Shown: positions 6,506-22,128 of the stretch, piece by piece
Position numbering within the stretch: the first letter of the stretch is position 1
Layout: each line of letters starts with the position of its first letter
NCBI GenBank assembly: GCA_016841955.1
Contig: JAENYE010000002.1
Location: forward strand, 165,344-189,343
Direction: 5' to 3'
From: Methanobacteriota archaeon
Lineage (GTDB): Archaea > Halobacteriota > Methanomicrobia > Methanomicrobiales > Methanoculleaceae
Length of the DNA: 24,000 nucleotides
Translations under genes and position numbers: made by a program
Notes under the pieces: model-generated
The model's input: only the letters and a program-made list of their open reading frames with translations
Told to the model about the DNA's origin: nothing
Database searches by the model: none

Positions 6506-7311
6506 CCCTCCCCGAGCGCCACGTATATCCCGGCGATGGTTATGTCGGCGATCGAGCCCGGGTTGATGCCGGCAGTGACGCACTCGGCGTCGAAGGCGTC
6601 AAGATCGCGCCCCCCGTCGAGCACCTCGGCCGCACACCTCATCGTCCTCTCCGCCACCGCCTCCCCGTACTTCTTCGCGATGAAGGTGTCCGGCACCGAC
6701 GCGAGGAGGTCGAGGAACGATGCGACGATCGCTTCACGCCCACTCCCATGCGTGTGAAGCAGGTCCGCGCACCGGCGGGTCAGGGCAAACCCGTTCGTCC
6801 ACTCCCGTGCGACCATGTCACGGGGCGCCGAGTGGGCCATGATGTCGGCAAGGGTCATGCCACGCTCCCGGATGGCGGCGACCGAGGCCGGGTCGTCCAC
6901 GTCCAGGTCGTCGCTCTCGGCCATCCGGACCCTCGTGAGGCCGAACGCCGCGTAAAAATCGATTGCGTCCTCGACATCGGTCCCGGCGGCGACCCTCCGC
7001 GCCCCGTCGATATCTCCCCCGAGGACGAGGGGGATGAGCAGGATGAACGCCCCGAAGTGGGTGTTTCCCCCGGCATGGTCGTTCGTACGCATGACCGCCT
7101 CCCGGATCAGGCTCCCGACCCGGCCGCCGGTCCTCTCGGCCGCATCGAAGACGGGTCTCGCGAGGATCGTCGAGGCGAGGAAATGCTCGAGACGGGTGTC
7201 CGGATAGTCGTGGCACCGGTCCACGTTCCCGGGTTTCGGGTAGGCGCAGACCTCGAGCATCATCGCCATCTGCGCACGTTCAGCTCGATTCATCGGCGGT
7301 TTCTTCCCCAT
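6487..7311 (-). CDS. CitG/MdcB-like protein (triphosphoribosyl-dephospho-CoA synthase family)
   Basis: MLEVCAYPKPGNVDR, GGNTHFGAFILLIPL and a helical remainder are typical of the CitG family. The start is uncertain: ATG 7311 or ATG 7293. Both overlap the upstream gene, which ends at 7280. Confidence 0.7.
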   Translation of the reverse strand: MGKKPPMNRAERAQMAMMLEVCAYPKPGNVDRCHDYPDTRLEHFLASTILARPVFDAAERTGGRVGSLIREAVMRTNDHAGGNTHFGAFILLIPLVLGGDIDGARRVAAGTDVEDAIDFYAAFGLTRVRMAESDDLDVDDPASVAAIRERGMTLADIMAHSAPRDMVAREWTNGFALTRRCADLLHTHGSGREAIVASFLDLLASVPDTFIAKKYGEAVAERTMRCAAEVLDGGRDLDAFDAECVTAGINPGSIADITIAGIYVALGEGWQWDC

Positions 7312-8419
7312 CGAATACCCTGTGCAGGATCTTCTCCGAGAGCTGGTGCTTGCACCGCATGTACTCCCGCGGAGAGAGGCCTTTCTTCTCAAGCGTCATG
7401 TTCCGGAACATGCAGGGAGAACTCATCTTGCAGCACCAGGCGAGGCTCCCGAAACAGGTGTTCTTCCCGTCGTCGAGCGCCGTCCCCTTCACCGCCTCCT
7501 GTTTGACTCTCAGGTAATCGTTCCGGGAGAGCCCGATCCTCTCGAGGGTCGGGATGAGCGGGCAGGCCTTCACCGGCATGCAGCAGAAGGTGAGCGCCCG
7601 AATATCGCCGCCACGGCAGAGCTGTTTCGGGGCGTTGTACCAGCCGCCTTCATCGGCAGACCGGGTGATGGCGGCATCGAGACCGGCGAGCGTCCAGGGA
7701 TCGGACTGCCGGGCAAGCGAGACGATATCCGCGCCGTGGGAGAAGGCGTCCATCGCCCGGTCGAACGTGTTTATGGAGTTGTTTGCGATCAGCATCAGGG
7801 GAGAGGCGTTGCGGATCTGGCGGACCTTGTTGTGCCCGAAGTCCATCAGGTCCACGTGGAGGATATCAGCCCCCGCCTTCCAGACGGTGCGGGCGAGATC
7901 GGCGTCATTGGCGGCGACACCTGCCCGGATCTTCACCGAAACGGTCACATCCGCCTCTTTCAAGGCGCGGACGATCTCCACGAGTTTTGCCGGGTGGTGG
8001 AGAAGGTACTCGCCGCACCCGGCCTCAAGCATCGCAGGCTGCCGGCAGTGAGCGTCGATCTCGTAGACCACGCGGTTTTCAAAAGCCTCAGCAATCTCCC
8101 CGTACGCAGCAGGAGTGCTCCCGCGGAGGTTGATGCCCGCTACGACATCGCTCTGTTTCAGGGCATCGATCTCTCTCTCCAGCGCTTCCAGGGGATCGTC
8201 GTATAAAAACTCTTTCCGACCCGCCTCTGCCATCTGCCGGCTCGCGTCAAGGGTGGGGCCGTCGATGGAATAGCCGCCTATGAAGGCCGCCCCGACATGA
8301 GCCGCGCGCTCAAGGACGTAGGCCGCATCCACGATCCCGGCCATGGATGCGATTGCTATCGGTGTTTTCACGATCCGATCGTTTATGAGGAGTTCAAAAC
8401 GATCATATGCTTCCATCAT
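7280..8419 (-). CDS. NifR3/Dus-like TIM-barrel protein fused to a C-terminal Cys-rich methanogenesis marker domain 9
   Basis: The N-terminal ~260 aa look like a flavin TIM barrel (PIAIASMAGI, GINLRG, EIDAHCRQP, VSVKIR, ILHVD). The C-terminal ~110 aa carry 9 Cys, including FCCMPVKACP and WCCKMSSPCMF. As I recall it, the marker-9 signature is two [WFY]CC..K/P.C motifs. Confidence 0.7.
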   Translation of the reverse strand: MMEAYDRFELLINDRIVKTPIAIASMAGIVDAAYVLERAAHVGAAFIGGYSIDGPTLDASRQMAEAGRKEFLYDDPLEALEREIDALKQSDVVAGINLRGSTPAAYGEIAEAFENRVVYEIDAHCRQPAMLEAGCGEYLLHHPAKLVEIVRALKEADVTVSVKIRAGVAANDADLARTVWKAGADILHVDLMDFGHNKVRQIRNASPLMLIANNSINTFDRAMDAFSHGADIVSLARQSDPWTLAGLDAAITRSADEGGWYNAPKQLCRGGDIRALTFCCMPVKACPLIPTLERIGLSRNDYLRVKQEAVKGTALDDGKNTCFGSLAWCCKMSSPCMFRNMTLEKKGLSPREYMRCKHQLSEKILHRVFDGEETADESS

Positions 8420-8988: not shown

Positions 8989-9396
8989 ATGGGTAGAAAA
9001 GGAATGTTACTGGTCGGCCACGGGAGCAAGCTCCCGCACAATAAAGAACTGATCGAGACCACAGCAGAGATCATCGCCGGAAAGACCGATGATTACCTCG
9101 TCAAACCCGGCTTCATGAGCCTCAACACGCCGTCGGTGGAGGAACAACTCGAGGCGTTCCGGAAGGAGGACATCGAGATGCTGGTCGTCGTCCCGCTCTT
9201 CCTCGCGAAAGGCGTCCACATCAACCAGGACATCCCCGAACTCCTCGGCCTCCCGGCGGGGGAACGGTGCGGCACGTTCCAGCTGAACGGGAAGACGGTG
9301 CCGCTCGTCTACGCAAACCCCATCGGCAGCGACCCGCTCCTTGCCGAACTGATGCTGAAGAACGCGTCCGACGCGATCGCCGAACTGAAACCCTGA
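8989..9396 (+). CDS. cfbA: Small CbiX-type chelatase; by context the sirohydrochlorin nickelochelatase CfbA
   Basis: A 135-aa CbiX(S) with LLVGHGSKLPHN and VVPLFLAKGVHI, followed directly by cfbE, cfbD and cfbB homologs. Confidence 0.8.
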   Translation: MGRKGMLLVGHGSKLPHNKELIETTAEIIAGKTDDYLVKPGFMSLNTPSVEEQLEAFRKEDIEMLVVVPLFLAKGVHINQDIPELLGLPAGERCGTFQLNGKTVPLVYANPIGSDPLLAELMLKNASDAIAELKP

Positions 9397-9401
9397 AGGA
9401 T

Positions 9402-10559
9402 ATGCGAATCCTGGTGCTGGATACCATCCACGGCGGGGCGGAGCTCGCCGGGGCACTCCGTGGTGCCGGCCACCAGGTGGACGAGGTGGACGTCTACCGC
9501 GGGAAGGCCGGTATTCCCATCGAGGAGGCACTCGTCCGCACCTACGATCTCGTCACCGCACCGGTCCACCTCGACTCCGACCACCCTCTCCTCCGGCACC
9601 ACGGGCCCGCGGTTCCCCACCACGAGATGGTGAAGCGGGTCCTCGACGGCCGGCTGCCGCATCCTTTCATCGAGATCACCGGGGCACGGGGAAAGACCAC
9701 CACCGCCCACGCCCTCGCCTCGCTGCTGCCGGGCCCGGGCATCCTCCACACATCGACCGGGACCTACCGCTACCCGGAGCGGGAGCTGCTCTGGAAGAAG
9801 AGCATCACCCCCGCCTCCCTGATAGTGGCGGTGCGTGAGGCGGAGCGGATCGGGGGCTGGCTGGTCGCCGAGGAGTCGCTCGGGGTCACCGCCGCCGGGG
9901 ACGTGGCGGTGCTGACTTCAGCAGAGGATTACCCGATCGCTGCGGGGAAGAAGCACGCGATCGCGGAGAAGTGCCGGCTGCTCTCCGGGGCGCGGACGGT
10001 CGTGCTCCCGCCCGGCATCGATCTGCCGGGAACGACGGTCGCCGCCGACGGGATGGTATCCTTCGACGGCCCGGTCTGCCGGTACGCCGGGTGCGGGATC
10101 GCCGGCACCTTCGAAAACCCGCTCTGCACCCTTGCGGGCTACCGCACGGCGCTGACGCTCGCGGCCGCGACCGCCTGCGTGCTCGGGATCGATCCTTCCC
10201 CCCTCGGGCGGTTCGCCGCCCTGCCCGGCCGGATGGCGGCCCGGCGGGAGGGAGACCTCCTGATCCTCGATAACGCAAACAGCGGGACGAACATGGCCAC
10301 CACCATTGAAGCCGCCCGCTACGCGAGAGAACTCTCGGGCAACGGCCCGATGACTATGGTCATCGGCGAGGAAGCACGAGCGGTCTGCGAGGGGTTCTCG
10401 GCGGAGGACATCCGGCGGACGGTATCGGCCGTCGGCCCGACGGCGACCGTCTACGTCGGGGAAGGGCATCCCGCGGCGACGCTCGATGCGGGGCTGGATG
10501 CCGCCCGGAAGATCACCCCGGCGGGCACGATCGTCCTCGCAGTAAAGACGTGGAGATAG
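9402..10559 (+). CDS. cfbE: Mur-ligase-like coenzyme F430 synthetase CfbE
   Basis: Mur ligase P-loop ITGARGKTTTAH. The start is set at ATG 9402 (MRILVLDTIHGG), 5 nt after the cfbA stop. The listed start at 9267 would overlap cfbA with an R-rich leader. Confidence 0.8.
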   Translation: MRILVLDTIHGGAELAGALRGAGHQVDEVDVYRGKAGIPIEEALVRTYDLVTAPVHLDSDHPLLRHHGPAVPHHEMVKRVLDGRLPHPFIEITGARGKTTTAHALASLLPGPGILHTSTGTYRYPERELLWKKSITPASLIVAVREAERIGGWLVAEESLGVTAAGDVAVLTSAEDYPIAAGKKHAIAEKCRLLSGARTVVLPPGIDLPGTTVAADGMVSFDGPVCRYAGCGIAGTFENPLCTLAGYRTALTLAAATACVLGIDPSPLGRFAALPGRMAARREGDLLILDNANSGTNMATTIEAARYARELSGNGPMTMVIGEEARAVCEGFSAEDIRRTVSAVGPTATVYVGEGHPAATLDAGLDAARKITPAGTIVLAVKTWR

Positions 10560-10562
10560 ACT

Positions 10563-11627
10563 ATGCACTACATTCAACCGAGACCGAGTTCAATTGTCGC
10601 GGCGCTCTACACCGCCCGCGACCTGGGGGTGGACGTGGCGATCCTCCACGGCCCGTCAGGCTGTTCGTTCAAGCACGCACGTCTCCTCGAGGAGGACGGC
10701 ATGCGGGTGCTGACGACATCGCTCGCCGATAACGAGTTCATCTTCGGCGGGCACGAGCCCCTTATGCGGGTGCTCCGCTACGCGGAGGAGACGTTTGCGC
10801 CCCGCCGGATGGCGGTCGTCGGGACGTGTGTTTCGATGATCATCGGGGAAGACCTCCTGTCCGCGATCCGGGACGCAGAGGTTGAGACTCCGGCGATCGC
10901 CGTGGACATCCACGCCGGGTTCAGGGAGAACATCGACGGCGTGCTCGCGACACTCGAACCGGCGGCGGCCGCGGGCTGGATCAGCGGCGACGAACTGGAA
11001 CGCCAGCGCTACCTACTCGCCAAGGCAAACGAGGTGGAGCGGCTGCGGGGAGCGGCCTCCCGGAACTACATCGAGCCGACGCGCGGCGACCTCAAGCACG
11101 TCGCGGCAGAGCGCCTCATGGAACTCGCCGAAGACGGTGCCACCGGGGTCGCGGTCATGAACGCGAAGAAAGAGACCGCCTATATGTTCGCCGACGAACT
11201 CCTCGCCCTCCACGATGTCTGTCCTGAGGGCAGGGTCACCTACCTCGCGAACCTCGAAGACCGGGGGCTCCCGAAGGTGCGGGAGGACGCCGCCCGGATC
11301 CTCGCCGGCATGCAGGGGCGGGGGGTCGACCCCGGACTCCTCGGGGCGCTCGACGAGTACGGGGCAAACGGTCCCGCGATCGGGGAGCGGATACGGGAGC
11401 TCGAACCGGACTTCGCCCTCCTCGTCGGTGTTCCGCACGCCGTTCCGCCGGAGTACACGGAAGGTATCGAGGTCTTCTCGATCACGAACGGCCCCCGGCA
11501 GGTGGAGCCGCTCCGGGAGATGGGGCACCGCCACGTCATGGTCGAGATCGACCTGCACCCGAAGACCCTCGGCGTCCGGGATGTCGTCGAGAGCGAGTTC
11601 GGGGCGGTCCTGCGGAGCATGCGATGA
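10563..11627 (+). CDS. cfbD: Nitrogenase NifD/E-like subunit of Ni-sirohydrochlorin a,c-diamide reductive cyclase, CfbD
   Basis: ILHGPSGCSFKH and VVGTCVSMIIGEDL are nitrogenase component-1-type cluster-ligand contexts. 354 aa. ATGA overlap with cfbB at 11624-11627. Confidence 0.75.
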   Translation: MHYIQPRPSSIVAALYTARDLGVDVAILHGPSGCSFKHARLLEEDGMRVLTTSLADNEFIFGGHEPLMRVLRYAEETFAPRRMAVVGTCVSMIIGEDLLSAIRDAEVETPAIAVDIHAGFRENIDGVLATLEPAAAAGWISGDELERQRYLLAKANEVERLRGAASRNYIEPTRGDLKHVAAERLMELAEDGATGVAVMNAKKETAYMFADELLALHDVCPEGRVTYLANLEDRGLPKVREDAARILAGMQGRGVDPGLLGALDEYGANGPAIGERIRELEPDFALLVGVPHAVPPEYTEGIEVFSITNGPRQVEPLREMGHRHVMVEIDLHPKTLGVRDVVESEFGAVLRSMR

Positions 11628-12991
11628 AGTCCTTCCTCGTCGCCGGCGACCGCTCCGGGAGCGGGAAGACGAGCATCACCCTTGCGCTCTCGGCCCTCCT
11701 TTCGGCCGACCGGACCGTCCAGACCTTCAAGGTGGGGATGGACTACATCGACCCTTCCTACCTCGCGGGGGTGACGGGCCGGCCCTGCCGGAACCTGGAC
11801 GGCTACGTGATGAGCCCGGGCGAGGTCCGGGCGGTCTTTGCGCACGGGTGCCGGGGAGCGGATATCGCCGTCGTCGAGGGAGTACGGGGGCTCTTTGAGG
11901 GCGCGGAGGCGCTCACCGACCTCGGGAGCACGGCCGCGATAGCAAAGCAACTCGACCTGCCGGTTGTTCTGGTCATCAACGCCCGGAGCATCACCCGGAG
12001 CGCGGCGGCGATCGTGAAGGGCTTCCAGGCCTTCGATTCGGATGTCGATATCCGGGGAGTCATCTTAAACAACGTCACCGGGACCCGCCACCGGGAGAAG
12101 GCGGTTCGTGCGATCGAGCACTACTGCGGCATCCCGGTCGTCGGCACCATTCCCCGGACGGCGGAGATGGAACTCGCGATGCGCCACCTCGGCCTCGTCC
12201 CCTACCGGGAGGGGCAGGGGCACGGGGAGTTCCTGGAACGGATCGACGTGATCAAGCAGAAGATCGGCGAGCACGTCGACCTCGACGCCCTGCTCGCGCT
12301 CGCCGCGGATGTCGAGCCCCCGGCGGAGGAGAACTCCGTCTACGCGGCGGCCGATCCGGACGTCCGGATCGGCGTCGCGCTGGACGAGGCATTCAACTTC
12401 TACTACGCCGACCTCTTCGACGTGCTCTCGTCGTGCGGTGCGGAGGCGGTCCCGTTCTCCCCGATCCACGACCGGCTGCCGGAGGCCGACGGCTACATCC
12501 TCGGCGGCGGCTACCCGGAGCTCTTCGGCCGTGAACTGGAGGCGAACACCGCGATGCGGGAGGGGCTCCGCGAGGTCTCGCGGAACGGCACACCAGTCTA
12601 CGCGGAGTGCGGGGGGCTGATCTACCTCACCGACCGGATGGTGCTCGCCCCGGGATTCATGGACGCGGATAAGGAGAGGGTCTATGAACTCGCCGGGGTA
12701 TTTTCGGGCGAAACAAGGATGCCGGCCCGGCGGATGCTCGGCTACGTGGTGGGGACGAGCGCGGCGGGGAGCCCCATGGGCGAGGCGGCGTTCCGGGGCC
12801 ACGAGTTCCACTACAGCAGCGTCCGCCTTGCGCCGGAGACGCGCTACGCCTACCGGCTGACCCGGGGGAGCGGGATCCGCGGGGGGTGCGACGGTGCGGT
12901 CCGGGACCGGACCATCGCAAGTTATACGCACCTCCACCCGGTGGCGAGCCGGGGGATGCTCGCGCACTTCGTGGGCTGCTGCCGGACCTGA
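11624..12991 (+). CDS. cfbB: CbiA/CobB-family amidotransferase; by context Ni-sirohydrochlorin a,c-diamide synthase CfbB
   Basis: N-terminal P-loop GDRSGSGKTSITLAL, a C-terminal glutamine amidotransferase part (VYAECGGLIYL, HEFHYS), 455 aa. Confidence 0.8.
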   Translation: MKSFLVAGDRSGSGKTSITLALSALLSADRTVQTFKVGMDYIDPSYLAGVTGRPCRNLDGYVMSPGEVRAVFAHGCRGADIAVVEGVRGLFEGAEALTDLGSTAAIAKQLDLPVVLVINARSITRSAAAIVKGFQAFDSDVDIRGVILNNVTGTRHREKAVRAIEHYCGIPVVGTIPRTAEMELAMRHLGLVPYREGQGHGEFLERIDVIKQKIGEHVDLDALLALAADVEPPAEENSVYAAADPDVRIGVALDEAFNFYYADLFDVLSSCGAEAVPFSPIHDRLPEADGYILGGGYPELFGRELEANTAMREGLREVSRNGTPVYAECGGLIYLTDRMVLAPGFMDADKERVYELAGVFSGETRMPARRMLGYVVGTSAAGSPMGEAAFRGHEFHYSSVRLAPETRYAYRLTRGSGIRGGCDGAVRDRTIASYTHLHPVASRGMLAHFVGCCRT

Positions 12992-13144
12992 CGGGGTTCG
13001 CGGCAACGCTTTTCTCGTGGCGGTCGGGACACCGGGATCGTTCTCCGGGGCCGATGCCGGCCGTCGCATCGTTCCCGGTCGCCGCAGGGTGGTTCGGCGC
13101 ACGAAACGCAAAACATACAAACAAATCGAGACTACACTGACTGC

Positions 13145-14014
13145 ATGATAATTTACCTTGACGGCAGATTCGTCACGGAGGAGGAGGCGAAGGTCTCGGT
13201 CTTCGATCACGGTCTCCTCTACGGCGACGGTGTTTTCGAGGGGATACGGGCCTACAACGGCAGGGTCTTCCGTCTTGACGAGCATCTCGCACGGCTCTAC
13301 GACTCGGCAAAGACGATCGACCTTGCCGTCCCGATCACGCGGGAGGAGTTTGCCGAGGCGATCAAGGAGACCCTGCGGCGCAACAACTTGAAGGACGCCT
13401 ACATCCGCCCGATCGTGACGAGGGGCGTCGGCGACCTCGGCCTCGACCCCCGGAAGTGCGCGAAACCGACCGTCATCGTCATCGCCGTCACCTGGGGCGC
13501 CATGTACGGCGACCTCTACGAGAAGGGCCTCCGGGCGGTCTGCGTCTCGGTCAGGCGCACCCCCCCTGAAGCGATGCCGCCGAACGTGAAAAGCCTCAAC
13601 TACTTAAACAACATCCTCGCGAAGATCGAGGCGAACTACCGCGGCGTGGACGAGGCGATCTTCTTCGACATCCACGGCAACATCTCCGAAGGGTCGGGGG
13701 ACAACATCTTCGTCGTCAAGAACGGCGCCATCATCACCCCGCCGACCCTCAACAACCTGCGCGGCATCACCCGGCAGGTCGTGCTGGAGATCGCGGCGTC
13801 GATGGGCATCACCCTCCTCGAGCGGAACCTCGGCTACTACGACCTCTACGCGGCCGACGAGGTCTTCGTCACGGGGACCGCGGCGGAGGTCGGTCCGATC
13901 CGCGAGATCGACGGGCGGGTCATCGGGAACGGCAAGCCCGGCCCCATCACCCGGCAGCTGATGGCGGCCTTCAAGACCGTCACCCAGAGAGAGGGAAGCC
14001 CGATCTACGAGTGA
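13145..14014 (+). CDS. ilvE: Branched-chain amino acid aminotransferase (class IV PLP enzyme)
   Basis: [18 protein letters not shown], the AYIRP.VTRG context, [12 protein letters not shown] and [10 protein letters not shown] are typical IlvE motifs. 289 aa. Confidence 0.9.
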
Positions 14015-14162
14015 GAAGTCCGGGTTTTCTCCGGCAGACATCCTTTTTCCTGATCCTTTACCGGCCATTCGCAGATGTATAAGTAGTACGCAGGGCAAGA
14101 CTGGATTGATCGCTTTCGCCCGTGCGAGGCCGGAGCCGGGCCCAACCGATGAAGGACATCCT

Positions 14163-15359
14163 ATGACGACCACCAGGGCAGTGAAGATCCCCCGGGCGAC
14201 ATGCAAGCTCTTCGGCGCGATAAAGGCGCTCGCGACCATCAAGCAGTGCGTCGTGCTCGTCCACGGGCCGAAGGGCTGCGTCTACCATATCAACTACATC
14301 CTCGGGATGCGGGGCGACCGCCCGTCCGAGATCTACTCGACGTGCCTTGACGAGCACGACGTCATATTCGGCGCCGAGGAGAAACTCAGAGAGGCCATCG
14401 AGGAACTCGATGCGCAGCTGCGTCCCGACCTCATCGCGGTCCTCTCCTGTTGCGTCTCAAGCATCATCGGCGAGGACATCGCCGCCGCGGTGAAGGCCGC
14501 CGAAACCGATGCACAGGTCGTCGGGATTGAAGCCGGGGGGTTCGAGGGCGATTTCCGGACGGGCTACAGCGAGACCCTTCGTCGGCTCGTCGAAGAGTTC
14601 GTCCGGGGACCCTGCGTTGTCGAGGAGCGGTCCGTCAACCTGATAGGCCTTCTCCGAGGCGGGCCGGACCTGCGGGAGCTCGTGCGCATCCTCGATCTCG
14701 TCGGCGTCCGGGTCAACGCGGCGCTTACCGCCGACGCAACGGTCGAAGACATCGAGCGCCTGGGTTCTGCGGCGCTCAACATCGTCGTCTGCGAACCGGC
14801 GGGGAAGGAGGCCGCAGAGATGCTCGAGCGGATCTGCGGCACCCCGTTCATCGTCGCCGACATCCCCATCGGGCACGCCGCCACCGTCCGGTTTCTCGAC
14901 TGCGTCGCCGAATCCCTCGGGCTTCCAGACTACGCAGGGCAGGGCCCCGACTCCGACGACGCCTGCCGCGAGGTCCTCGCGGGCCGGCGGGTGGCGATCG
15001 TCAGCGGGCCGACGCGGGCAATCTCCATGACTCTCTTCCTCGCGGGTCTCGATCTGGCGCCGTCTCTCATCGTCGTGGACTTCGACTCGGATACCCTAAA
15101 AAGGCTGAGAGATCTGGCCGGCCCGGAGTGCGAGATCCTGATCGAGCCGGAGCAGGAGGAGATCAGGGAGAGGCTCAAGACATGCCGGATCGACCTGGTC
15201 TTCGGCGGCATGCTCGAGAAGCCCCTCGCTGCATCGCTCGGGATCGAGCACCTGGACATGATGCACGGCAGCCAGAGGACGCTCGGGTTTGCCGGCGCAG
15301 AGCACCTCATCGCGGCGCTCGCGAAGCAAAAACCCCGCCGCCCCGGCGGATGCGGATAG
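14163..15359 (+). CDS. Second nitrogenase component-1 (NifD/NifE)-like metalloprotein paralog; possibly methanogenesis marker 13 family
   Basis: LVHGPKGCVYH and AVLSCCVSSIIGEDI parallel the cfbD motifs HGPSGC and TCVSMIIGEDL. The start is set at ATG 14163 (MTTTRAV). There is no NifH-type P-loop, so it is not CfbC. Confidence 0.65.
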   Translation: MTTTRAVKIPRATCKLFGAIKALATIKQCVVLVHGPKGCVYHINYILGMRGDRPSEIYSTCLDEHDVIFGAEEKLREAIEELDAQLRPDLIAVLSCCVSSIIGEDIAAAVKAAETDAQVVGIEAGGFEGDFRTGYSETLRRLVEEFVRGPCVVEERSVNLIGLLRGGPDLRELVRILDLVGVRVNAALTADATVEDIERLGSAALNIVVCEPAGKEAAEMLERICGTPFIVADIPIGHAATVRFLDCVAESLGLPDYAGQGPDSDDACREVLAGRRVAIVSGPTRAISMTLFLAGLDLAPSLIVVDFDSDTLKRLRDLAGPECEILIEPEQEEIRERLKTCRIDLVFGGMLEKPLAASLGIEHLDMMHGSQRTLGFAGAEHLIAALAKQKPRRPGGCG

Positions 15360-15478: not shown

Positions 15479-15551
15479 GCTGCTATAGTGTAGGGGCCAA
15501 TCATGTCGGCCTTTCACGCCGACGACTGGGGTTCGAATCCCCATAGCAGCA
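15479..15551 (+). tRNA. tRNA-Glu (anticodon UUC)
   Basis: Hand-folded. Acceptor stem GCTGCTA/TAGCAGC plus discriminator A. Anticodon stem TCGGC/GCCGA with loop CTTTCAC (TTC). T arm TGGGG-TTCGAAT-CCCCA. The D region GTGTAGGGGCCAATCAT resembles archaeal tRNA-Glu. No encoded CCA. An oligo-T tract (TCTTTGTTTTT) follows. Confidence 0.9.
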
Positions 15552-15775
15552 TCTTTGTTTTTGAAAATTGTTCTAATCTAAGTACAGGAAGTGCTTTATC
15601 TTAAAGTGATATTAGGTGTGTGGCCTTCTGAAGTTATTTTGTTTCTAGAAGCCACATAAAGATGACAGAGAAAGGCACGAAGGCTAGGTTTTATGAATCA
15701 GGTGTGTGACACTGGGCTAACAAAAAGGAATTATCTATGCGTACAGTTGAATATGGTGAATTATGACCCATCGGA

Positions 15776-16207
15776 CTATCTGGGTCTTAATAACAGGGCC
15801 TTTTCCCGGAAAACCGTCCAAAAATATATTAATTTCCGATTCACCAACCATGCATAACCCGCTGATATTAGTGCTCCGACTATAATCGCTAGCACAGATA
15901 GTGCTAGTATTACCAAATAAACATTCGTTAAATCTGTAAACATCCTGATCCCTATTGGGAGTGCTACAAAACAAAAGCCCATTATCGTACTTGTGTCTTT
16001 TTTTTCTTTTTGGTAATGTTCAATCCGATTATCGCATATATCAAGAAAGTTATTCAATTCCTCGCTTGTAACATGCTGTTTAAAGAACTTTTTAATGGTC
16101 TCTTGCTCTACCTGAGAAAAGTTAGGATTGTAAGTATACCGTACGATCGATTTTTGAGGGAGTATGGCGCTTTCACAGATTCTTATGAGTTCCAAAGCCT
16201 TGATCAT
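15776..16207 (-). CDS. Hypothetical small membrane protein (two predicted C-terminal TM helices)
   Basis: A 143-codon ORF in AT-rich DNA. Hydrophobic stretches IMGFCFVALPIGI and VYLVILALSVLAIIVGALISAGYAWLV. The T-rich element TTTTTGTTATGG lies about 27 nt upstream of the ATG on the minus strand. Confidence 0.5.
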   Translation of the reverse strand: MIKALELIRICESAILPQKSIVRYTYNPNFSQVEQETIKKFFKQHVTSEELNNFLDICDNRIEHYQKEKKDTSTIMGFCFVALPIGIRMFTDLTNVYLVILALSVLAIIVGALISAGYAWLVNRKLIYFWTVFREKALLLRPR

Positions 16208-16303
16208 ATAACAGTATTTTCTGTGACCATAACAAAAACTAGATCCTTCTTGGGTAATGTCTCAATCTTCTGTAATTTGCCTGAGCCCTGTCCCCTTGCC
16301 TGA

Positions 16304-16969
16304 TCATTCCTTCTCCATCGTCAAATATCTTCTGCCGGTGATCTACTCCACGTTGCTATCCATCAGGATAGATTCAATCAGCCTGAGCAGTGCCTCTCCA
16401 TTCGGGAATACCCCAACCACCTTGGTTCTCCGTTCAGTTCCTTATTGACTCATTACATCATGTTCATGGTTCAGATCCGTTTCCAATGTTGTTCCGGGAA
16501 TGCGGTGTAACTCATGAGCTCTGGAAGGGACCCTTCAACAGTGTTAGCTGCTTTCCGGTAACACTGTGTATGCAGGTCATTCGAGAAACAGAGACAGGAG
16601 ATAGCTGATCGACGCCCAGTGGGCAACGATCTCCTAGACCCTTCTCGTCGCGATTCCTAGTGGAGGACGCAACAATCATATTCACTAGAGCCTTCCCCAT
16701 CCGGGCATAGCGTCCAAAGACTGTATCTCGAACGGGAGCTCCAGGAACTGCGGTTTTTTGAGGATGATCTCACTGTACCGGGTTTTGAGGGATCGATTCT
16801 TGTACCTGTTCCGATATGCTTTCCGCGTATTGGTTCTCTCGTACGGGGTGGCTCCTGCCTGCTCGAGTGCCTCTTGCAACATCACCTGGTTTCTCAACCA
16901 GATGGTGAGCGTCTTCATGCCGTTTTCATGAACGGAAAAATAGTCTTCGATAAACGCTAGGGGATCCAC
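16304..16969 (-). pseudogene. IS256-family (Mutator-like) transposase pseudogene, with the DDE core internally deleted plus frameshifts and stops
   Basis: The N-terminal part reads ATPYERTNTRKAYRNRYKNRSLKTRYSEIILKKPQF.ELPF. After a frameshift it reads GKALVNMIV.SSTR...VSVSR. A C-terminal part is recovered by hand translation: FPEQHWKRI*T, then ERRTKVVGVFPNGEALLRLIESILMDSNVE*ITGRRYLTMEKE, where TAG replaces the conserved TGG. Only about 665 nt remain of the roughly 1.2 kb expected. Confidence 0.75.
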
Positions 16970-17030
16970 GGCTCTGCATCTCCTTTCTGCAGATCCAGGT
17001 TAGATTAAGATCCTATTCGACATTTACAGA

Positions 17031-17792
17031 ATGTTCGCTACGTTACCCTTAAAATCACGAATGGAAAACTATTTTAAGAGCCTGTTTTTAGTTATTGATT
17101 GTGATCATCGTATGAATGAAGAGATCGATGTCAAAGAACACGCTAAAAATTTAGTCTGTGCCATCCAAGCGTTAACCCCATCGAGGAACCTACTCATTCA
17201 GTTTCTTGCCATGTCATCACTGGACTTTCCAACAATGTACGATACATTTCCAGAGATCCTAAAAGATAAAGAGTGGCGTAAAGCATTGGAAATGGCCTTT
17301 GGCGTATCCTTCGGGGAAAAAGTTGACTTAAACCATGGGAATAACCTGGGCCGTCCTATCGTCGAATTATACGAGAAGGTTTTCAACACGCTCACCGACG
17401 AGAAAGTGCGCGAAGGACTGGCTCTTTTGAGTGGTATCCCTCAGGAAAAAATCCCAAATCCACGTAAGGAATGGATTCATTTACGGTTAGAGGGGCTAGC
17501 ATTGGAACCAAGTGTTGGTGAGGAATCACTTTTAGTACTAAAGACGATAAAGAGAGTTGCTGAAGAAAGGGACTCAGCATATCCACAATATAAATTAAGT
17601 CTGTCAGATGTTGAAGCGTTGACTAATATTGACGAGAGACGCATCCTATCGATTGTAGACCTCTTACTCAAGTATAAATTGGTTGGAAAATCCTCAATTC
17701 GCGAAGATGATGAGGAGGGTCGTTCCATCTGGAAAGATGCGATTGAGTTCGGGACAGATCTTCGAGATGAGGTCGATCTGCTTACAGGATAA
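17031..17792 (+). CDS. Hypothetical protein with a wHTH-like C-terminus (island module 1, gene 1)
   Basis: A 253-codon ORF in roughly 40% GC DNA, which is unlikely by chance. The C-terminal LSLSDVEALTNIDERRILSIVDLLLKYKLVGK resembles a winged-helix recognition unit. An alternative start at ATG 17112 (MNEEIDV) has TATA-like TTTTTAGTTATT/ATTTTAAGAG upstream. Confidence 0.6.
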   Translation: MFATLPLKSRMENYFKSLFLVIDCDHRMNEEIDVKEHAKNLVCAIQALTPSRNLLIQFLAMSSLDFPTMYDTFPEILKDKEWRKALEMAFGVSFGEKVDLNHGNNLGRPIVELYEKVFNTLTDEKVREGLALLSGIPQEKIPNPRKEWIHLRLEGLALEPSVGEESLLVLKTIKRVAEERDSAYPQYKLSLSDVEALTNIDERRILSIVDLLLKYKLVGKSSIREDDEEGRSIWKDAIEFGTDLRDEVDLLTG

Positions 17793-17812
17793 ACCCTAAT
17801 GGCATTACACAG

Positions 17813-19561
17813 GTGTTTCGTGTGCATAAGACGAACCGACTGCATAACCAGGAAGACTACAATAGGCAAGTTCGGGCTAGACGTCAAAATCTAAAACAAG
17901 AACAATCAGAAGGCACCGAGATTCAACGAGAATCCGGCGACTCCCCGCCCGGAGCAGGCTATGAAAAAGAAATAAGTGTTACAGCAGCCCTGTTTGCACG
18001 GCAGTTTCAGAAAATCAAAAGAAGTTCACGAATTCCCCCCGTCAGCCTCAAAGTAAGTGCAAACAGCCCCAAAATCATCATTCATGATGCAGGAGTACAG
18101 GTAGCTAGTAAAAGAATTCCTCCACCGAAGGTTCGAGGATGTGTTGCACCAAAATTGATACTTCCTATAAAGGGTTTTCAGACGCTTGAGGTAGCGCCCA
18201 TTCTGAAACCGATCTCATCGCCATCCAGTATGGTTCCGCCAACGCTCTCGACAGAGCCACTCATGACGGTACAACAGCACCTATCCAACCCCTGCCAGAT
18301 GAGATCCTTACTGACCATAAGACCTACTGAGCGCCACTTGCCGGTACTGAAATGCAGGAAAATTATCACTCAGTGTATGTCACCTTTGGGAGGTTCGAAA
18401 CCGTCAACGCCCCAACCTGAGGAGAGTTCTGATCTACCCCCATTAGATGATGATATATTTGACATATTCTTCCAACAAGAGGGGCCGGGAAGGATCGACG
18501 ATGGTAAGCCAGCTGTAATCTGTGTTGTTGAACCATCAGAGGATAGGGTTTTTGGCTTGATTGAAACGTTTTGCCAGCGGATCTACAGAGAAAAACGCGG
18601 GGGGAACCCCGAACCACTCAAAATAACAAGTCTTTCCGAGCTTAAACCAGAGATACCGTTCCTTCAGGCTTCGAATAAAATCGTGTCCATTCAGTTGACG
18701 AAAGAAGATTGGGTAAAACTGAGTGGAGAGAAGGAGGATTGGGCGAATTTCCAAAACAGGATTGATCAGCTGTATTCCCAAAATTTAGGTTTCATCATTA
18801 TCAACTATCCCCGTCCATTCCGTAGAGCTCCTAGCGCCCATAATGTCCGAGTTATCAATATTTCCCCAAAAATTTTAGATACTAAATGTAAACGAAATTT
18901 TGCGGAACTGGCATGGGGTTTTGTCTGCATCGATGACACGTTAGAGAGATGGGAAGAGATCTTTGAATGCGGGAGGATGCACTATGAAAAAGCACTCGAG
19001 CGCATTCGACGTGAAAACGGCAATAAATGGGAATTGGCAACAAATCACAATGAAAACGGTGAATCCGAGGAACATTTCTCGATCAAGTGCTTCATCGTTA
19101 AAACGCTCACTGAAAAGTATGTGCGGGAGGGTACGCTGGAAACGAATAGCGAACCTTCGGAGATAAAAGAGAAGGTACTCACAGAAGTTAAGGAAGCAAC
19201 ATGCGGGATTGTACCTGACATTACTTATCATGAAAACGAATTTTATGAGATCGAGACCTTGTTTTCTAGCGAAAGGCAGAGTAAGAGCGTAATAAAGAAA
19301 ATTGCTGAAAAGATTGAAGCCTATGAGGGCGTTAGGAAAAAAGTAGTAGTCCATATTGTACTCGAAAATATCACCCTATTAAGGCATCTTAGCGAGATCA
19401 GAGATGTTTTAAAGAATTACCAAAAGTGGCAAAAGACCCACAATATTGACATCCACATCTCGACACTTAATGTCAGGGAGGGAAAACTCGTTTCCCTTCA
19501 GGAGTTTCAGAGATCCCTTCGAAATTTGATGGGAGAATGCAGTAAGGTATCAAATGTGTAG
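17813..19561 (+). CDS. Hypothetical 582-aa protein: P/S/K-rich N-terminal region, unknown middle domain, C-terminal CoiA-like PD-(D/E)XK nuclease signature (island module 1, gene 2)
   Basis: A long ORF that begins 20 nt after the previous stop. The start is GTG 17813, or GTG 17822 which lies 6 nt after AGGTG; the first in-frame ATG is at codon 140. The C-terminus reads EEHFSIKCFIVKTL...LTEVKE...GIVPDITYHENEFYEIETL, giving the pattern H..hK / E / PD / ExE. Confidence 0.65.
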   Translation: MFRVHKTNRLHNQEDYNRQVRARRQNLKQEQSEGTEIQRESGDSPPGAGYEKEISVTAALFARQFQKIKRSSRIPPVSLKVSANSPKIIIHDAGVQVASKRIPPPKVRGCVAPKLILPIKGFQTLEVAPILKPISSPSSMVPPTLSTEPLMTVQQHLSNPCQMRSLLTIRPTERHLPVLKCRKIITQCMSPLGGSKPSTPQPEESSDLPPLDDDIFDIFFQQEGPGRIDDGKPAVICVVEPSEDRVFGLIETFCQRIYREKRGGNPEPLKITSLSELKPEIPFLQASNKIVSIQLTKEDWVKLSGEKEDWANFQNRIDQLYSQNLGFIIINYPRPFRRAPSAHNVRVINISPKILDTKCKRNFAELAWGFVCIDDTLERWEEIFECGRMHYEKALERIRRENGNKWELATNHNENGESEEHFSIKCFIVKTLTEKYVREGTLETNSEPSEIKEKVLTEVKEATCGIVPDITYHENEFYEIETLFSSERQSKSVIKKIAEKIEAYEGVRKKVVVHIVLENITLLRHLSEIRDVLKNYQKWQKTHNIDIHISTLNVREGKLVSLQEFQRSLRNLMGECSKVSNV

Positions 19562-19567
19562 TCTTGA

Positions 19568-19657
19568 TACTCCCTCTTTTACAACAATGAGTGAAATTTT
19601 TCGGAGATGAGGGTTTCAACAGGGCCTAATCCACCAAAATTACATTAAGAGGGAGTA
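19568..19657. terminator. Inverted repeat between the convergent island modules (possible bidirectional terminator or structured element)
   Basis: TACTCCCTCTT (19568-19578) is the exact reverse complement of AAGAGGGAGTA (19647-19657). A second small palindrome GTAAAATCTTTTAC at 19655-19668 overlaps the stop of the minus-strand gene. Confidence 0.3.
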
Positions 19658-19664
19658 AAATCTT

Positions 19665-20597
19665 TTACTTACCCAGTATTTTCCCAACTTCATTTATGAA
19701 GTCATTTTTATTGTAGATTACTTTTCCCTCTGCTGCGCATTTATCCAGATTTAGATCAGCCCTTGAGATTATTTTCATAGTTTTTGGCCAAGTCATATTC
19801 CATGGTACAGAATCGTGAAAATTACTGCCCCGATAGCAGTCTGAAAAGGAAAAGTCATCTTTTACGTCAATAAATTTCTTAAAACTCTTTGAAAAAAAGA
19901 GCTCTTGAAGATTGCTTAAGGACTCTACAACATCTTTTTCTTTTCCTCGTGATCTCATTGCTTGTATTCTCTGATACGTCAATTTCTTGATATTATGGGG
20001 ATTAGTTTCTTTGAGCAAACGAACACCTATCTCTAACTCTTTACGGAAAGATGGAGGAATAACGGTGTTAATATCGTTACTTATGCCAACATCTATGCTA
20101 AAGTCGATATCCTCCAATTCAAGTTTACCATATTTTGTCTTTAGAACGCTGGGATGTTTCAACTCTGCATGAATCCAATATTCATTTTGACTTTCCGTTG
20201 GAACTTCTTTTGCTCGATGCTTTTCTATCAGAGCGTCAAGATAGTTAGGATTCTTTATATCATACTCAAGATCCAACACAAACGTATCAATATCAGACAT
20301 ACATCTTGTATTCAATTCAAACCCATTTGGGGTAACTGTTATCGCTGAGGAAAGATCCTCAAGACTTCTTAGTGGTCTTAGTTTTATCCGTTTTGGAACA
20401 CCATATGGAAATGGAATTTTTTTAGGTACAATACCCCCTTTCGCTTCGAATGCTATGGAATACTTCTGAAGATTCTCTGGACAATATACTACCATCTCCG
20501 GAGGGTATACGGTATATGAGCCTCTTATTGTTTCGTATATCTTTGACGCATTTTTAATAATCTCCTCAGTAACTTTCTGAGCTATTTCATTTACCAT
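19665..20597 (-). CDS. Hypothetical 310-aa protein (island module 2, gene 2)
   Basis: A long ORF in ~35% GC DNA. The start is set at ATG 20597 (MVNEIAQK), which is preceded on the minus strand by GAGGGGGG (20602-20609) with 4-nt spacing. I recognise no domain. Confidence 0.65.
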   Translation of the reverse strand: MVNEIAQKVTEEIIKNASKIYETIRGSYTVYPPEMVVYCPENLQKYSIAFEAKGGIVPKKIPFPYGVPKRIKLRPLRSLEDLSSAITVTPNGFELNTRCMSDIDTFVLDLEYDIKNPNYLDALIEKHRAKEVPTESQNEYWIHAELKHPSVLKTKYGKLELEDIDFSIDVGISNDINTVIPPSFRKELEIGVRLLKETNPHNIKKLTYQRIQAMRSRGKEKDVVESLSNLQELFFSKSFKKFIDVKDDFSFSDCYRGSNFHDSVPWNMTWPKTMKIISRADLNLDKCAAEGKVIYNKNDFINEVGKILGK

Positions 20598-20611
20598 TTT
20601 GCCCCCCTCAA

Positions 20612-21628
20612 TTAACCCCAATTAAAAAGGCAATGGATCGGAATTTTTACAGGAACTGTGCACTCACTAATTTCGACCTCAATAGGTGGTATTTCAATTT
20701 CTGGGTACTCGTTAAAGGCTAAATCGGTTCTTTGAAGGCTTAGATGTATTATTGTTGGGGTTTGTTGAACTTTTAGTACTTCAATCGAGTTATGAATAAC
20801 TATCTTATTTTTCCCTATTGAATCCAAATAATTTAAGAAACTTTCAATCTTTGTAAGTAATTTCAGGTTTTTAAAATAGGAATAGGTAAATGCTAAAGAA
20901 AACTTTTCGTGAAAATCTCCATTTTCTTCAAACTTATTTGAGAGGTTTGAAAATGTTGCATTCATTTTCACTCTCCCTTCTTCATCTAAAGACACTGGAT
21001 TCTTTAGCAAATCAAGCACATCATCAACTACTGCGTTATACTCAACAAATTCTTTCTTTACTTCTTCCATTTCATTTTCAAGATCAACAATAACTTTCTT
21101 TTTAAATTCGCCCATTCCATCAGGAGTTGATAAAATCGCGTCTTCTGAGGGTTGAAGTTTTACTTCAATCAATGCAGTACCCCCTCCACAATTTTTAACA
21201 TTAATTTTCTCACTTAAATGGAACTTCCCTTGTTCACTATCATATCGAATTTTGATTCGTTCAGGGGCACTGATTAGCTCAATATCAGGCCTAAATAAAT
21301 CGATGCTTTTAGGAATTCGTTCTACTTCACCAGTGGCAGTATCTTTTACCTCAAATAAAACAAATTCAATTGCCCTAGGGGTTTCCGATAATTTTGAAGA
21401 AAATACAAAACCTGCATAACCATTGATTTCAAATTGAGATAGCTTAAAGGAGGATTCTTCTATCAGTTCTATACTGCCTTCCGGTACATTGTAAACGTCT
21501 TTCAACTCCAAGTTTTTTGAGAGTGTAAAAGTGATCTCAACTAGATCTGCCTTATTCCATAAAATATGAGCGGGAAAATCATCGTTTTGAATAGATGTAG
21601 TCGGCATATACAGTGATTTTATCTGCAT
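20612..21628 (-). CDS. Hypothetical 338-aa protein, beta-rich N-terminal half and helical middle (island module 2, gene 1)
   Basis: The listed ORF starts at a TTG (21709). ATG 21628 (MQIKSLYMPTT) lies about 27 nt downstream of the minus-strand CATATATACTATT (about 21650-21662), a leaderless archaeal arrangement. The stop at 20612 is 14 nt upstream of the next gene's ATG. Confidence 0.65.
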   Translation of the reverse strand: MQIKSLYMPTTSIQNDDFPAHILWNKADLVEITFTLSKNLELKDVYNVPEGSIELIEESSFKLSQFEINGYAGFVFSSKLSETPRAIEFVLFEVKDTATGEVERIPKSIDLFRPDIELISAPERIKIRYDSEQGKFHLSEKINVKNCGGGTALIEVKLQPSEDAILSTPDGMGEFKKKVIVDLENEMEEVKKEFVEYNAVVDDVLDLLKNPVSLDEEGRVKMNATFSNLSNKFEENGDFHEKFSLAFTYSYFKNLKLLTKIESFLNYLDSIGKNKIVIHNSIEVLKVQQTPTIIHLSLQRTDLAFNEYPEIEIPPIEVEISECTVPVKIPIHCLFNWG

Positions 21629-22128
21629 AATTACCAAAACATTAACATAATAGTATATATGACTTTTCATTAAAACCGATAAACATAAGTTATTTCCATC
21701 AAAAAACAATTAATTACAGCCCGTTATATGGATAAATAAGGAGCCTTCGTTTTTTGAAAGTGTATAATCGTCGCTTAAGCATACAATTGAACGTAGGAGT
21801 GTGGCCCATGCCTTCTGCTCCAGCAATGCCAGAAGGTGGCGAACCGGCCAACCTGATACAACCGTCTCAATGAAACAGGACGATCCCTCGCCCGGTCGGA
21901 AGAGACAGTCATCCAACAAAATCACCCTCTTCCACCAGACAGGCGGCATCCCTCAACCCGCACGCATCCAGAACCATGAACGCACCTGCCCTGAGCACGA
22001 TTCTCACCAGCAAGAAGATGAGGAACTCAATCAGCCTGTCAGGCAGTGTAGAAAGATAGCGACCAAAAACCTTCAGACCAATCCTATTTCGGAAGATACA
22101 TCAGCACTAAAACGGAGCGTGTATTTGT

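Follow-up and report, generated by a model that had tools for sequence, protein, structure and literature searches.

Restriction endonucleases with a PD-(D/E)xK active site include an E-x-E variant known from BamHI, whose site is formed by E77, D94, E111 and E113. A nuclease gene can also be lodged within a larger defense locus: in the type V BREX system of Haloarcula hispanica, a NucS-like nuclease gene occupies the brxC2-brxX1 junction, and the authors liken it to brxU of Escherichia fergusonii (bioRxiv 10.64898/2026.04.28.721311). Archaeal defense and conflict systems are far less charted than those of bacteria, and the discovery pipelines mostly use bacterial models. Here, we describe two adjacent open reading frames (ORFs), ORF1 and ORF2, which encode a partner protein (A) and a candidate effector (B) in a 24,000-nucleotide (nt) stretch of a methanogen genome (GCA_016841955.1, contig JAENYE010000002.1; hereafter, the window). 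We read the pair as an autonomous mobile operon of an undescribed archaeal family that combines a winged helix-turn-helix (wHTH) protein with a nuclease effector, and for which a role in biological conflicts, be it defense or addiction, is most likely; we put the probability of this reading at about one half. We found no earlier description of the pair in the literature.

The two genes and their predicted products

The two ORFs are co-oriented and 20 nt apart, as an earlier reading of the DNA alone (the sequence-only reading) had stated, with the following features at the gene level:

17031-17792, + strand: ORF1 as given in the ORF list, 253 amino acids (aa), encoding partner protein A
17070-17079, + strand: A/T-rich TATA-like element tattttaaga, 33-42 nt 5′ of the ATG at 17112, read from the sequence
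17793-17812, + strand: spacer of 20 nt between the ORF1 stop codon (TAA, 17790-17792) and the ORF2 start codon (GTG, 17813)
17813-19561, + strand: ORF2 as given in the ORF list, 582 aa with a GTG start, encoding effector protein B

Because the ORF1 homologs (P0008-P0012, with identities of 45-51%) and NCBI's own call (P0007) all start where ORF1 has Met28, we place the most likely ORF1 coding sequence at 17112-17792 (226 aa), a later start that the sequence-only reading missed. The TATA-like element may be an archaeal promoter for the operon. Its use would leave the ATG at 17031 upstream of the transcription start and would fit a transcript beginning between the two ATGs (17031 and 17112). A scan for promoters and terminators gave counts at the level of shuffled sequences, with bacterial models that are not applicable to archaea. 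For ORF2, the public annotation retains only the last 334 codons (P0001). On the strength of full-length homologs, including P0002, we accept the 582-aa form: homologs are 570-650 aa long, P0002 covers 98% of it, and its poorly conserved N-terminal 211 aa still align with P0002 from a common MF.V start (E 4e-4). By these alignments, the 582-aa ORF2 is evidently the real gene and the reference gene model is truncated. The public annotation also puts a 46-aa gene on the opposite strand within the ORF2 N-terminal region (window 17813-18556; L016 9257-10000).

Two regions can be delineated in protein A:

17112-17501, + strand: helical N-terminus (residues 1-130, numbered on the 226-aa form), in which conserved columns pick out the motifs P-S-R-N and F-P-E-L/I
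17517-17747, + strand: C-terminal wHTH, residues 136-212, from AlphaFold and Foldseek

The winged-helix-like end noted from the sequence is borne out by both topology and structural matches: the AlphaFold model places helices at 136-153, 164-171 and 175-187 and strands at 161-163, 192-199 and 205-212, with a predicted local distance difference test (pLDDT) of 84-93, and Foldseek against the PDB recovers the winged helices of TFIIE/TFE-alpha, MarR, PadR and ROK repressors (probability ~1.0, E 0.02-0.2). No Pfam HTH family matches ORF1. Residues 1-130 are poorly modeled helices of low confidence, with only six sequences in the AlphaFold input. We accordingly treat A as a probable DNA-binding protein, in which a family-specific helical N-terminus would precede the winged helix.

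Protein B was modeled with AlphaFold from a 101-sequence alignment (mean pLDDT 76; 326 residues at pLDDT ≥ 90) and shows four regions:

17831-17908, + strand: N-terminal charged helix, residues 7-32, pLDDT 77-83, with the family consensus EEER..R and conserved E14 and R18
17918-18400, + strand: disordered Pro/Lys/Glu-rich region, residues 36-196, with pLDDT <50 across 36-111 and 115-196
18455-19042, + strand: central alpha/beta domain with a helical lid, residues 215-410, pLDDT 85-98, P-loop/AAA+-like fold
19061-19552, + strand: C-terminal nuclease-like domain, residues 417-580, pLDDT >90

The C-terminal domain is the one that the sequence-only reading singled out for its ordered residues H-x2-IK, E, PD and ExE. 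These are indeed present, as H421-F-S-I-K425, E458, P468-D469 and E479-I-E481, and are conserved in the 101 homologs, which are 19-44% identical to the window protein: none of them departs from H421, K425 or D469, and E458, E479, E481 and T482 each reach a conservation of at least 90%. In the predicted structure, the elements follow one another as helix 419-438, strands 455-457, 470-472 and 476-481, helix 493-502 and strand 511-517; this modeled alpha-beta-beta-beta-alpha-beta succession matches the core order of the restriction-fold PD-(D/E)xK nucleases. E417, S418, H421 and K425 map to helix 1, T457 and E458 to strand 1, D469 to the start of strand 2 immediately after P468, E479-I-E481-T482 to strand 3, and V516 and N519 to the fourth strand, which follows helix 2. 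The retention of this residue set across very divergent sequences strongly suggests that it is an active site. From motif and predicted topology, we infer a metal-dependent nuclease of the PD-(D/E)xK type, with D469, E479, E481 and probably E458 forming the site and H421 and K425 from helix 1 likely replacing the canonical strand lysine.

Several results weigh against this assignment. A glutamate stands at the canonical position of the strand lysine, and the invariant K425 lies instead on helix 1. No profile or structure search tied the C-terminal domain to a known nuclease: PDB sequence searches with the single sequence and with 6- and 101-sequence profiles returned nothing, the best 50 Foldseek PDB matches of ORF2 are dominated by the AAA+-like domain, and Pfam scans of 80 members gave only single matches at chance level (XhoI, E 0.006; SfsA, E 0.035). 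A relationship of the C-terminal profile to BamHI (sequence checked against 1bam) was tried and rejected, as hhalign detects none (probability 0.2%). These results leave slim odds for a reading in which B is no enzyme, its C-terminal domain is a DNA- or protein-binding module whose charged residues contact a ligand or partner, and the pair is a regulator or scaffold. Such a reading accords with the lack of any sequence or structure match to a nuclease, the missing strand lysine and the fact that the ATPase-like domain is already degenerate; yet an Asp, two to three Glu, a His and a Lys at canonical core positions resemble a two-metal nuclease site, and the set is invariant across very divergent sequences. 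A DNA-binding partner joined to a nuclease effector, as first proposed from the sequence, thus holds for the winged helix and the conserved residues, whereas the nuclease fold is a prediction from motif and topology that no structural match backs. We retain the nuclease as the preferred reading of B.

The sequence-only reading missed three features: besides the later ORF1 start, these are a degenerate AAA+-like domain and the ~160-residue disordered N-terminal region. Almost all of the best 50 Foldseek PDB matches of ORF2 are AAA+ proteins (ATAD2, FtsH, NSF, p97 and ORC/Cdc6; E 5e-4 to 3e-2, probability up to 0.85), and matches in BFVD are weak and to P-loop NTPases. The central domain has the three-layer alpha/beta structure and helical lid of the AAA+ fold, and the similarity is modest. 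The statement that neither protein contains a P-loop therefore stands for the motifs only: regular expressions find neither Walker A (GxxxxGK[ST]) nor Walker B (hhhhDE) in ORF1 or ORF2, and neither motif is in the ORF2 family consensus, but the P-loop/AAA+-like fold of the ORF2 center went unseen. Walker A occurs anywhere in just 3 of 100 family members, and none of 80 members scanned matches a Pfam AAA family. Conserved instead are C254-x-R-I-Y-R-E...G-G-x-P266, after the first helix, and G326-F-I-I-x-N331, on a later strand. From the model, we read the central domain as a catalytically dead AAA+-like scaffold, which, since the nucleotide-binding motifs are lost, would probably serve in oligomerization or regulation.

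The disordered arm carries degenerate hydrophobic-proline motifs, which in the window protein are IPPV at 74, LPVL at 176 and, just beyond the disordered region, LPPL at 208. Across the family, [ILVM]P[ILVFYMP][ILVFYM] is 3.3-fold enriched over shuffled sequences in this region, with a dominant spacing of 30-39 residues; tandem repeats of ~33 residues center on I-P-I-[IV]-[KR]-L-E-x-P and reach three to four copies in many members. Examples of such stretches are residues 54-166 of P0005 and 70-210 of the window ORF2. One possibility is that these repeats are binding sites for the partner protein.

Pairing and spread across archaea

Hidden Markov models (HMMs) were used to screen the ORFs called in each fetched locus. 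Wherever the ORF2 homolog is intact and the contig reaches far enough on the 5′ side, a co-oriented partner, either of the ORF1 type or a longer homolog, lies directly upstream, which answers the question of co-occurrence that the sequence-only reading had raised. In this position, 26 loci have the ~220-aa ORF1-type partner; in 44 others, mostly from hot-spring and sediment metagenomes, the partner is ~385 aa long. With either type, the gap between the partner and B is -41 to +20 nt in most loci, such that the genes abut or overlap, and the two would be translationally coupled in most of them. The short and long partners align in hhalign with a probability of 85% (E 6e-6) through the P-S-R-N/F-P-E-L region, extending over 216 columns at relaxed settings; by this comparison, the long partner looks like ORF1 with ~100 extra N-terminal residues. 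Many of the long-partner (thermophile) loci, like a Lokiarchaeota genome, have two partner paralogs in tandem ahead of B, which gives a three-gene operon of ~370 + 390 + 600 aa.

The ORF1 homolog is split (135 + 91 aa) in Haloarcula argentinensis DSM 12282 (L012 8738-9417) and intact (226 aa) in Haloarcula sp. CBA1127 (L091 9328-10008), and ORF2 copies are split in L014, L065, L082, L083 and L088; either pseudogenization or faulty assembly may explain them. At four loci, a ~110-aa gene overlaps the ORF2 stop codon by 4 nt (L002 6393-6734, L008 11092-11433 and L019 11050-11364) or 23 nt (L017 3438-3767). It is 58-85% identical between loci and is followed by a RimK-type ATP-grasp ligase where the contig reaches. 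An unrelated 92-aa gene of the MJ0235 family overlaps the ORF2 stop likewise in L015.

Neither window protein matches a family in Pfam, NCBIfam, PADLOC or PHROGs, nor does either find a counterpart in sequence searches of the PDB, in line with the first impression that neither belongs to a named family. The PADLOC-DB v2 models match neither ORF1 and ORF2 nor the haloarchaeal and thaumarchaeal copies; 80 diverse ORF2 members scanned singly gave only chance-level single hits (E >0.002), with no recurrent Pfam or PADLOC family. All public copies are labeled "hypothetical protein". The family is nevertheless large. A word-indexed search recovered only six relatives each for ORF1 and ORF2, and the same search with an 80-sequence alignment was flooded by low-complexity words and returned seven proteins. 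When 1.84 billion representatives (clusters at 50% identity) were searched with a profile built from the 371 conserved C-terminal residues, 459 clusters passed E ≤ 1e-3 and 164 passed E ≤ 1e-30; nearly all are 570-650 aa long, with the match starting near residue 210-260. A genome scan recovered nine loci and a metagenome scan 72.

The family spans five or more archaeal groups, its members coming from Methanomicrobia, Methanosarcinales, Halobacteria, Thaumarchaeota, Lokiarchaeota and Promethearchaeota, with Methanomicrobiaceae, Methanolliviera, Methanosarcinales, Halorubrum, Haloarcula, Thaumarchaeota, Promethearchaeota and Lokiarchaeota as named sources. A contig labeled "Desulfobacteria bacterium" (L009/L019) shows the pair in the same synteny as the archaeal L002 and L008, and may be an archaeal contig mis-binned in a bacterial metagenome-assembled genome, for example from a methane-oxidizing consortium. 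Very long forms of 1403 aa (L089 6133-10344, Halorussus pelagicus plasmid NZ_CP035121.1), 1392 and 809 aa (P0126, P0046) carry the conserved module at the C-terminus. That these are fusions with the partner was considered and rejected, as their extra N-termini match neither the partner HMMs nor a Pfam family; in P0126, this additional sequence holds a segment that resembles a winged helix by eye.

The proposal of a candidate undescribed two-gene system is thus supported, with no known family claiming either protein and with the pairing conserved elsewhere. To this can be added the size and pan-archaeal spread of the family, a partner that may be short, long or duplicated, and an effector combining a pseudo-ATPase domain with a repeat-bearing disordered arm.

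Genomic contexts and candidate roles

The flanks of the pair differ wholly among related methanogens: a tRNA-Glu and coenzyme F430 genes in the window, ribosomal protein S8e, SRP19 and RNase P in L001, and HEPN/MNT, TldD and LonB in L004. A motif scan of one genome per species (185,579 species) found only nine loci, with just two haloarchaeal species, although haloarchaeal proteins keep the scanned motif. In 17 of 24 non-redundant loci, the guanine-cytosine (GC) content of the pair falls short of that of its flanks by more than two points (median -6). Because flanks vary, presence is patchy, GC is low and some copies are split or frameshifted, the pair behaves as a horizontally mobile accessory cassette.

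In three haloarchaea (Haloarcula argentinensis, Haloarcula sp. CBA1127 and Halorubrum persicum), this cassette is lodged in a type V BREX system, with BrxC on one side and PglX on the other; these two proteins match their PADLOC models with 2549 and 2473 bits, respectively, and BrxB and PglZ are nearby. As H. hispanica carries a different nuclease gene at the same place, the brxC-pglX junction looks like a cargo site for accessory nucleases. In Haloarcula (L012 6911-8652; L091 7513-9242), an additional pair, comprising a double winged-helix protein of the HVO_2833 type and a DUF6036 nucleotidyltransferase, is inserted between brxC2 and the ORF1/ORF2 pair, so that the junction holds two cargo cassettes. 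The pair is not a constant BREX component: the type V locus described for H. hispanica lacks it, and most copies, including that of the window, have no BREX genes nearby.

Other neighborhoods are also partly rich in defense genes. HEPN/MNT pairs adjoin the pair at some loci, including L004; the thaumarchaeal copy (L010) has an OLD/GajA-like ATPase-TOPRIM protein 4 kb away and a NERD-domain protein; the Lokiarchaeote locus has ParB_N and TnpB genes; and on the Halorussus plasmid, the 1403-aa homolog lies beside a PLD-nuclease-like protein and an integrase. Among 148 neighbors scanned, there are also type II methyltransferases and AbiEi/AbiEii. L010 is flanked (7109-7777, 11372-12067) by a 222-aa ORF with a textbook P-D...E-V-K motif and no Pfam match, and by the NERD-domain protein. 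The question of defense islands posed from the sequence thus receives a divided answer: BREX in three haloarchaea and HEPN/MNT, OLD/GajA-like, NERD, PLD-nuclease and ParB_N genes elsewhere speak for it, while other loci have housekeeping neighbors only.

The tight translational coupling with the DNA-binding gene first, the small autonomous form of the cassette and its variable contexts could also be features of a toxin-antitoxin or addiction module, which we consider unlikely, albeit the strongest of the competing explanations. The toxin would then be the nuclease B, with the winged-helix protein A as antitoxin and autorepressor, and the module would stabilize its host island, plasmid or BREX locus rather than sense invaders. 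Its company of toxin-antitoxin pairs (HEPN/MNT; wHTH + DUF6036), the homolog on the Halorussus plasmid and the existence of split copies fit this picture. The proteins are, however, far above the typical type II size (226 and 582 aa, with partners of up to ~400 aa that are sometimes duplicated), a simple toxin does not explain the disordered repeats and pseudo-ATPase domain, and palindromic operator signals upstream of the partner gene are not above shuffled controls (16 loci).

Set against our preferred reading, a conflict role of the mobile pair, are this same absence of an operator signal and a further group of observations. Many loci have only ordinary metabolic or replication neighbors (e.g., RFC-like, aminotransferase and radical-SAM genes). 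One lineage (L002, L008, L017 and L019) keeps the pair in fixed synteny with a phosphodiesterase, the ~110-aa gene and the RimK-type ligase, which is atypical of a defense island. The Lys/Glu-rich composition of the proteins may contribute to the low GC of the pair. Virus collections hold no homolog (IMG/VR motif scan; tblastn against phage records), and hence give no counter-defense signal. Lastly, the NucS-like junction gene of H. hispanica is dispensable for defense (bioRxiv 10.64898/2026.04.28.721311), so that the position in BREX is no proof of a defense role.

The housekeeping neighbors and the fixed synteny with non-defense genes in one lineage, together with the size of the family, its broad archaeal spread and the strong purifying selection on its catalytic-looking residues, would suit a lineage-restricted complex for DNA transactions (repair, recombination or chromatin) that is inherited vertically in some archaea with occasional transfer. 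We hold this to be improbable: presence is patchy (nine species genomes by the motif scan, two of them haloarchaea), the position differs in related methanogens, GC is below that of the flanks, and copies are found on a foreign island beside a tRNA in the window and as an insertion in BREX.

In the window itself, the following features surround the pair:

15479-15551, + strand: tRNA-Glu(UUC), from ARAGORN, Rfam and the GC profile; left edge of the low-GC island
15776-16207, - strand: 143-aa ORF located after the tRNA and before the transposase fragment; its C-terminal half is hydrophobic, and it matches no family
16685-16969, - strand: Mutator-family transposase fragment, 94 aa
19665-20621, - strand: 318-aa ORF, convergent with ORF2
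20612-21709, - strand: 365-aa ORF, overlapping the 318-aa ORF by 10 nt and likewise convergent with ORF2

The GC profile shows that ORF1 and ORF2 are carried by a stretch of 35-47% GC (~15550-22000) in a genome of ~65% GC, which begins directly past the tRNA-Glu(UUC). No second, att-type copy of the tRNA 3′ end is found elsewhere in the window, and neither an integrase nor a repeat of this 3′ end marks the far edge of the island, which looks like an old or decayed integration. Among the pair and its island neighbors, the transposase fragment is the sole match to a family in Pfam, PADLOC, NCBIfam or PHROGs. The 318-aa and 365-aa ORFs match nothing in these databases, have no homolog in ~90 fetched loci, and form a separate module of the island. 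The upstream high-GC flank (~9000-15359) holds a coenzyme F430 biosynthesis set (CbiX/CfbA, CfbE with CfbE_C, two Oxidored_nitro proteins and a CbiA-type amidase), from which we conclude that the host is a methanogen.

The transposase remnant beside the window copy, the occurrence of the cassette at many unrelated sites, the integrase and plasmid in Halorussus, and the union of an AAA+-like domain with a restriction-fold-like one raise the prospect, which we regard as the most remote of those considered, that the nuclease and DNA-binding protein serve to integrate, transpose or replicate the very cassette or island that encodes them, comparable to a TnsA-type restriction-fold nuclease with a DNA-binding/AAA+ regulator. 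The window shows no terminal inverted or direct repeats around the pair, however; the other island genes (the ORFs of 143, 318 and 365 aa) do not travel with it at other loci; virus collections lack homologs; and the ATPase motifs that such regulators require are missing.

We therefore return to a conflict role for the operon and propose the following mechanism. A, through its winged helix, would direct or restrain B on DNA, presumably by physical interaction, while B would act as the effector, in which a charged helix, a long disordered linker with hydrophobic-Pro motifs and a degenerate AAA+-like domain lead up to the C-terminal nuclease. The module would thereby most likely defend against viruses or plasmids in the manner of a stand-alone or type IV-like restriction nuclease. 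Extending this, we tentatively suggest, at odds somewhat short of even, that the pair is the founding example of a new and widespread archaea-specific anti-virus or anti-plasmid system, in which a winged-helix sensor or targeter, single or duplicated, would control the effector, and the unusual E-x-E restriction-fold nuclease of the effector would be regulated by its repeat-bearing arm and its catalytically dead AAA+ domain; the system would operate by itself or be plugged into type V BREX between brxC and pglX.

Comparison with known systems

The family comprises hundreds of clusters at 50% identity from methanogens, haloarchaea, Thaumarchaeota and Asgard archaea, and is covered by no Pfam, NCBIfam, PADLOC or PHROGs model. 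If it is a defense or addiction nuclease, it would add an effector of novel architecture, in which a pseudo-AAA+ domain is joined to an atypical restriction-fold site, would mark the brxC-pglX junction as a cargo hotspot of archaeal BREX, and would be a tractable test case, with close relatives in haloarchaeal hosts for which genetic tools and viruses are available. Even if it is a housekeeping family, it merits a curated model and corrected gene calls.

The putative active site is most like that of BamHI and its PD-(D/E)xK relatives: within the predicted core, D469 follows a proline at the start of strand 2, E479-x-E481 lies on strand 3, and E458 would complete a four-acid set comparable to E77/D94/E111/E113. 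It differs from BamHI and the Pfam nucleases in showing no detectable relation to them, in the His and Lys of helix 1, in the fusion to a pseudo-AAA+ domain and in the long disordered N-terminus. The central domain (residues 215-410) shares, by Foldseek, the fold of Orc1/Cdc6-like and classical AAA+ proteins; unlike these, it lacks Walker A and B, is matched by no Pfam AAA family in 80 members and is followed by a nuclease-like C-terminus, not a winged helix.

At the level of whole systems, the type IV McrBC enzymes combine, as B is predicted to, AAA+-fold and restriction-fold modules, need no cognate methyltransferase and occur in defense loci. The AAA+ protein of McrBC is, however, an active GTPase in a separate subunit, whereas the AAA+-like domain of ORF2 is without Walker A or B and fused to the nuclease-like domain; neither PADLOC nor Pfam gives a match, and the partner is a winged-helix protein rather than McrB or McrC. 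With the BREX accessory nucleases (BrxU/GmrSD of E. fergusonii and the NucS-like protein of H. hispanica), the pair shares its location, lying in three haloarchaea at the brxC-pglX junction that is occupied in H. hispanica. The proteins are unrelated, the pair has two genes and also occurs without BREX, as in the window, and the H. hispanica insert is not needed for defense. Shedu (SduA) resembles B, as predicted here, in bearing a C-terminal nuclease of the restriction-fold type after a variable N-terminus and in being accessory and island-borne, but ORF2 has neither a DUF4263 nor a PADLOC Shedu match, its partner gene is obligatory and it contains the pseudo-AAA+ domain. Since all the sequence-based membership tests failed, we assign the pair to none of these systems, and since most copies are without BREX, we do not count it as a component of BREX; by analogy, it appears functionally closest to the McrBC-type or BrxU-like accessory restriction modules and to the Shedu-type nucleases.

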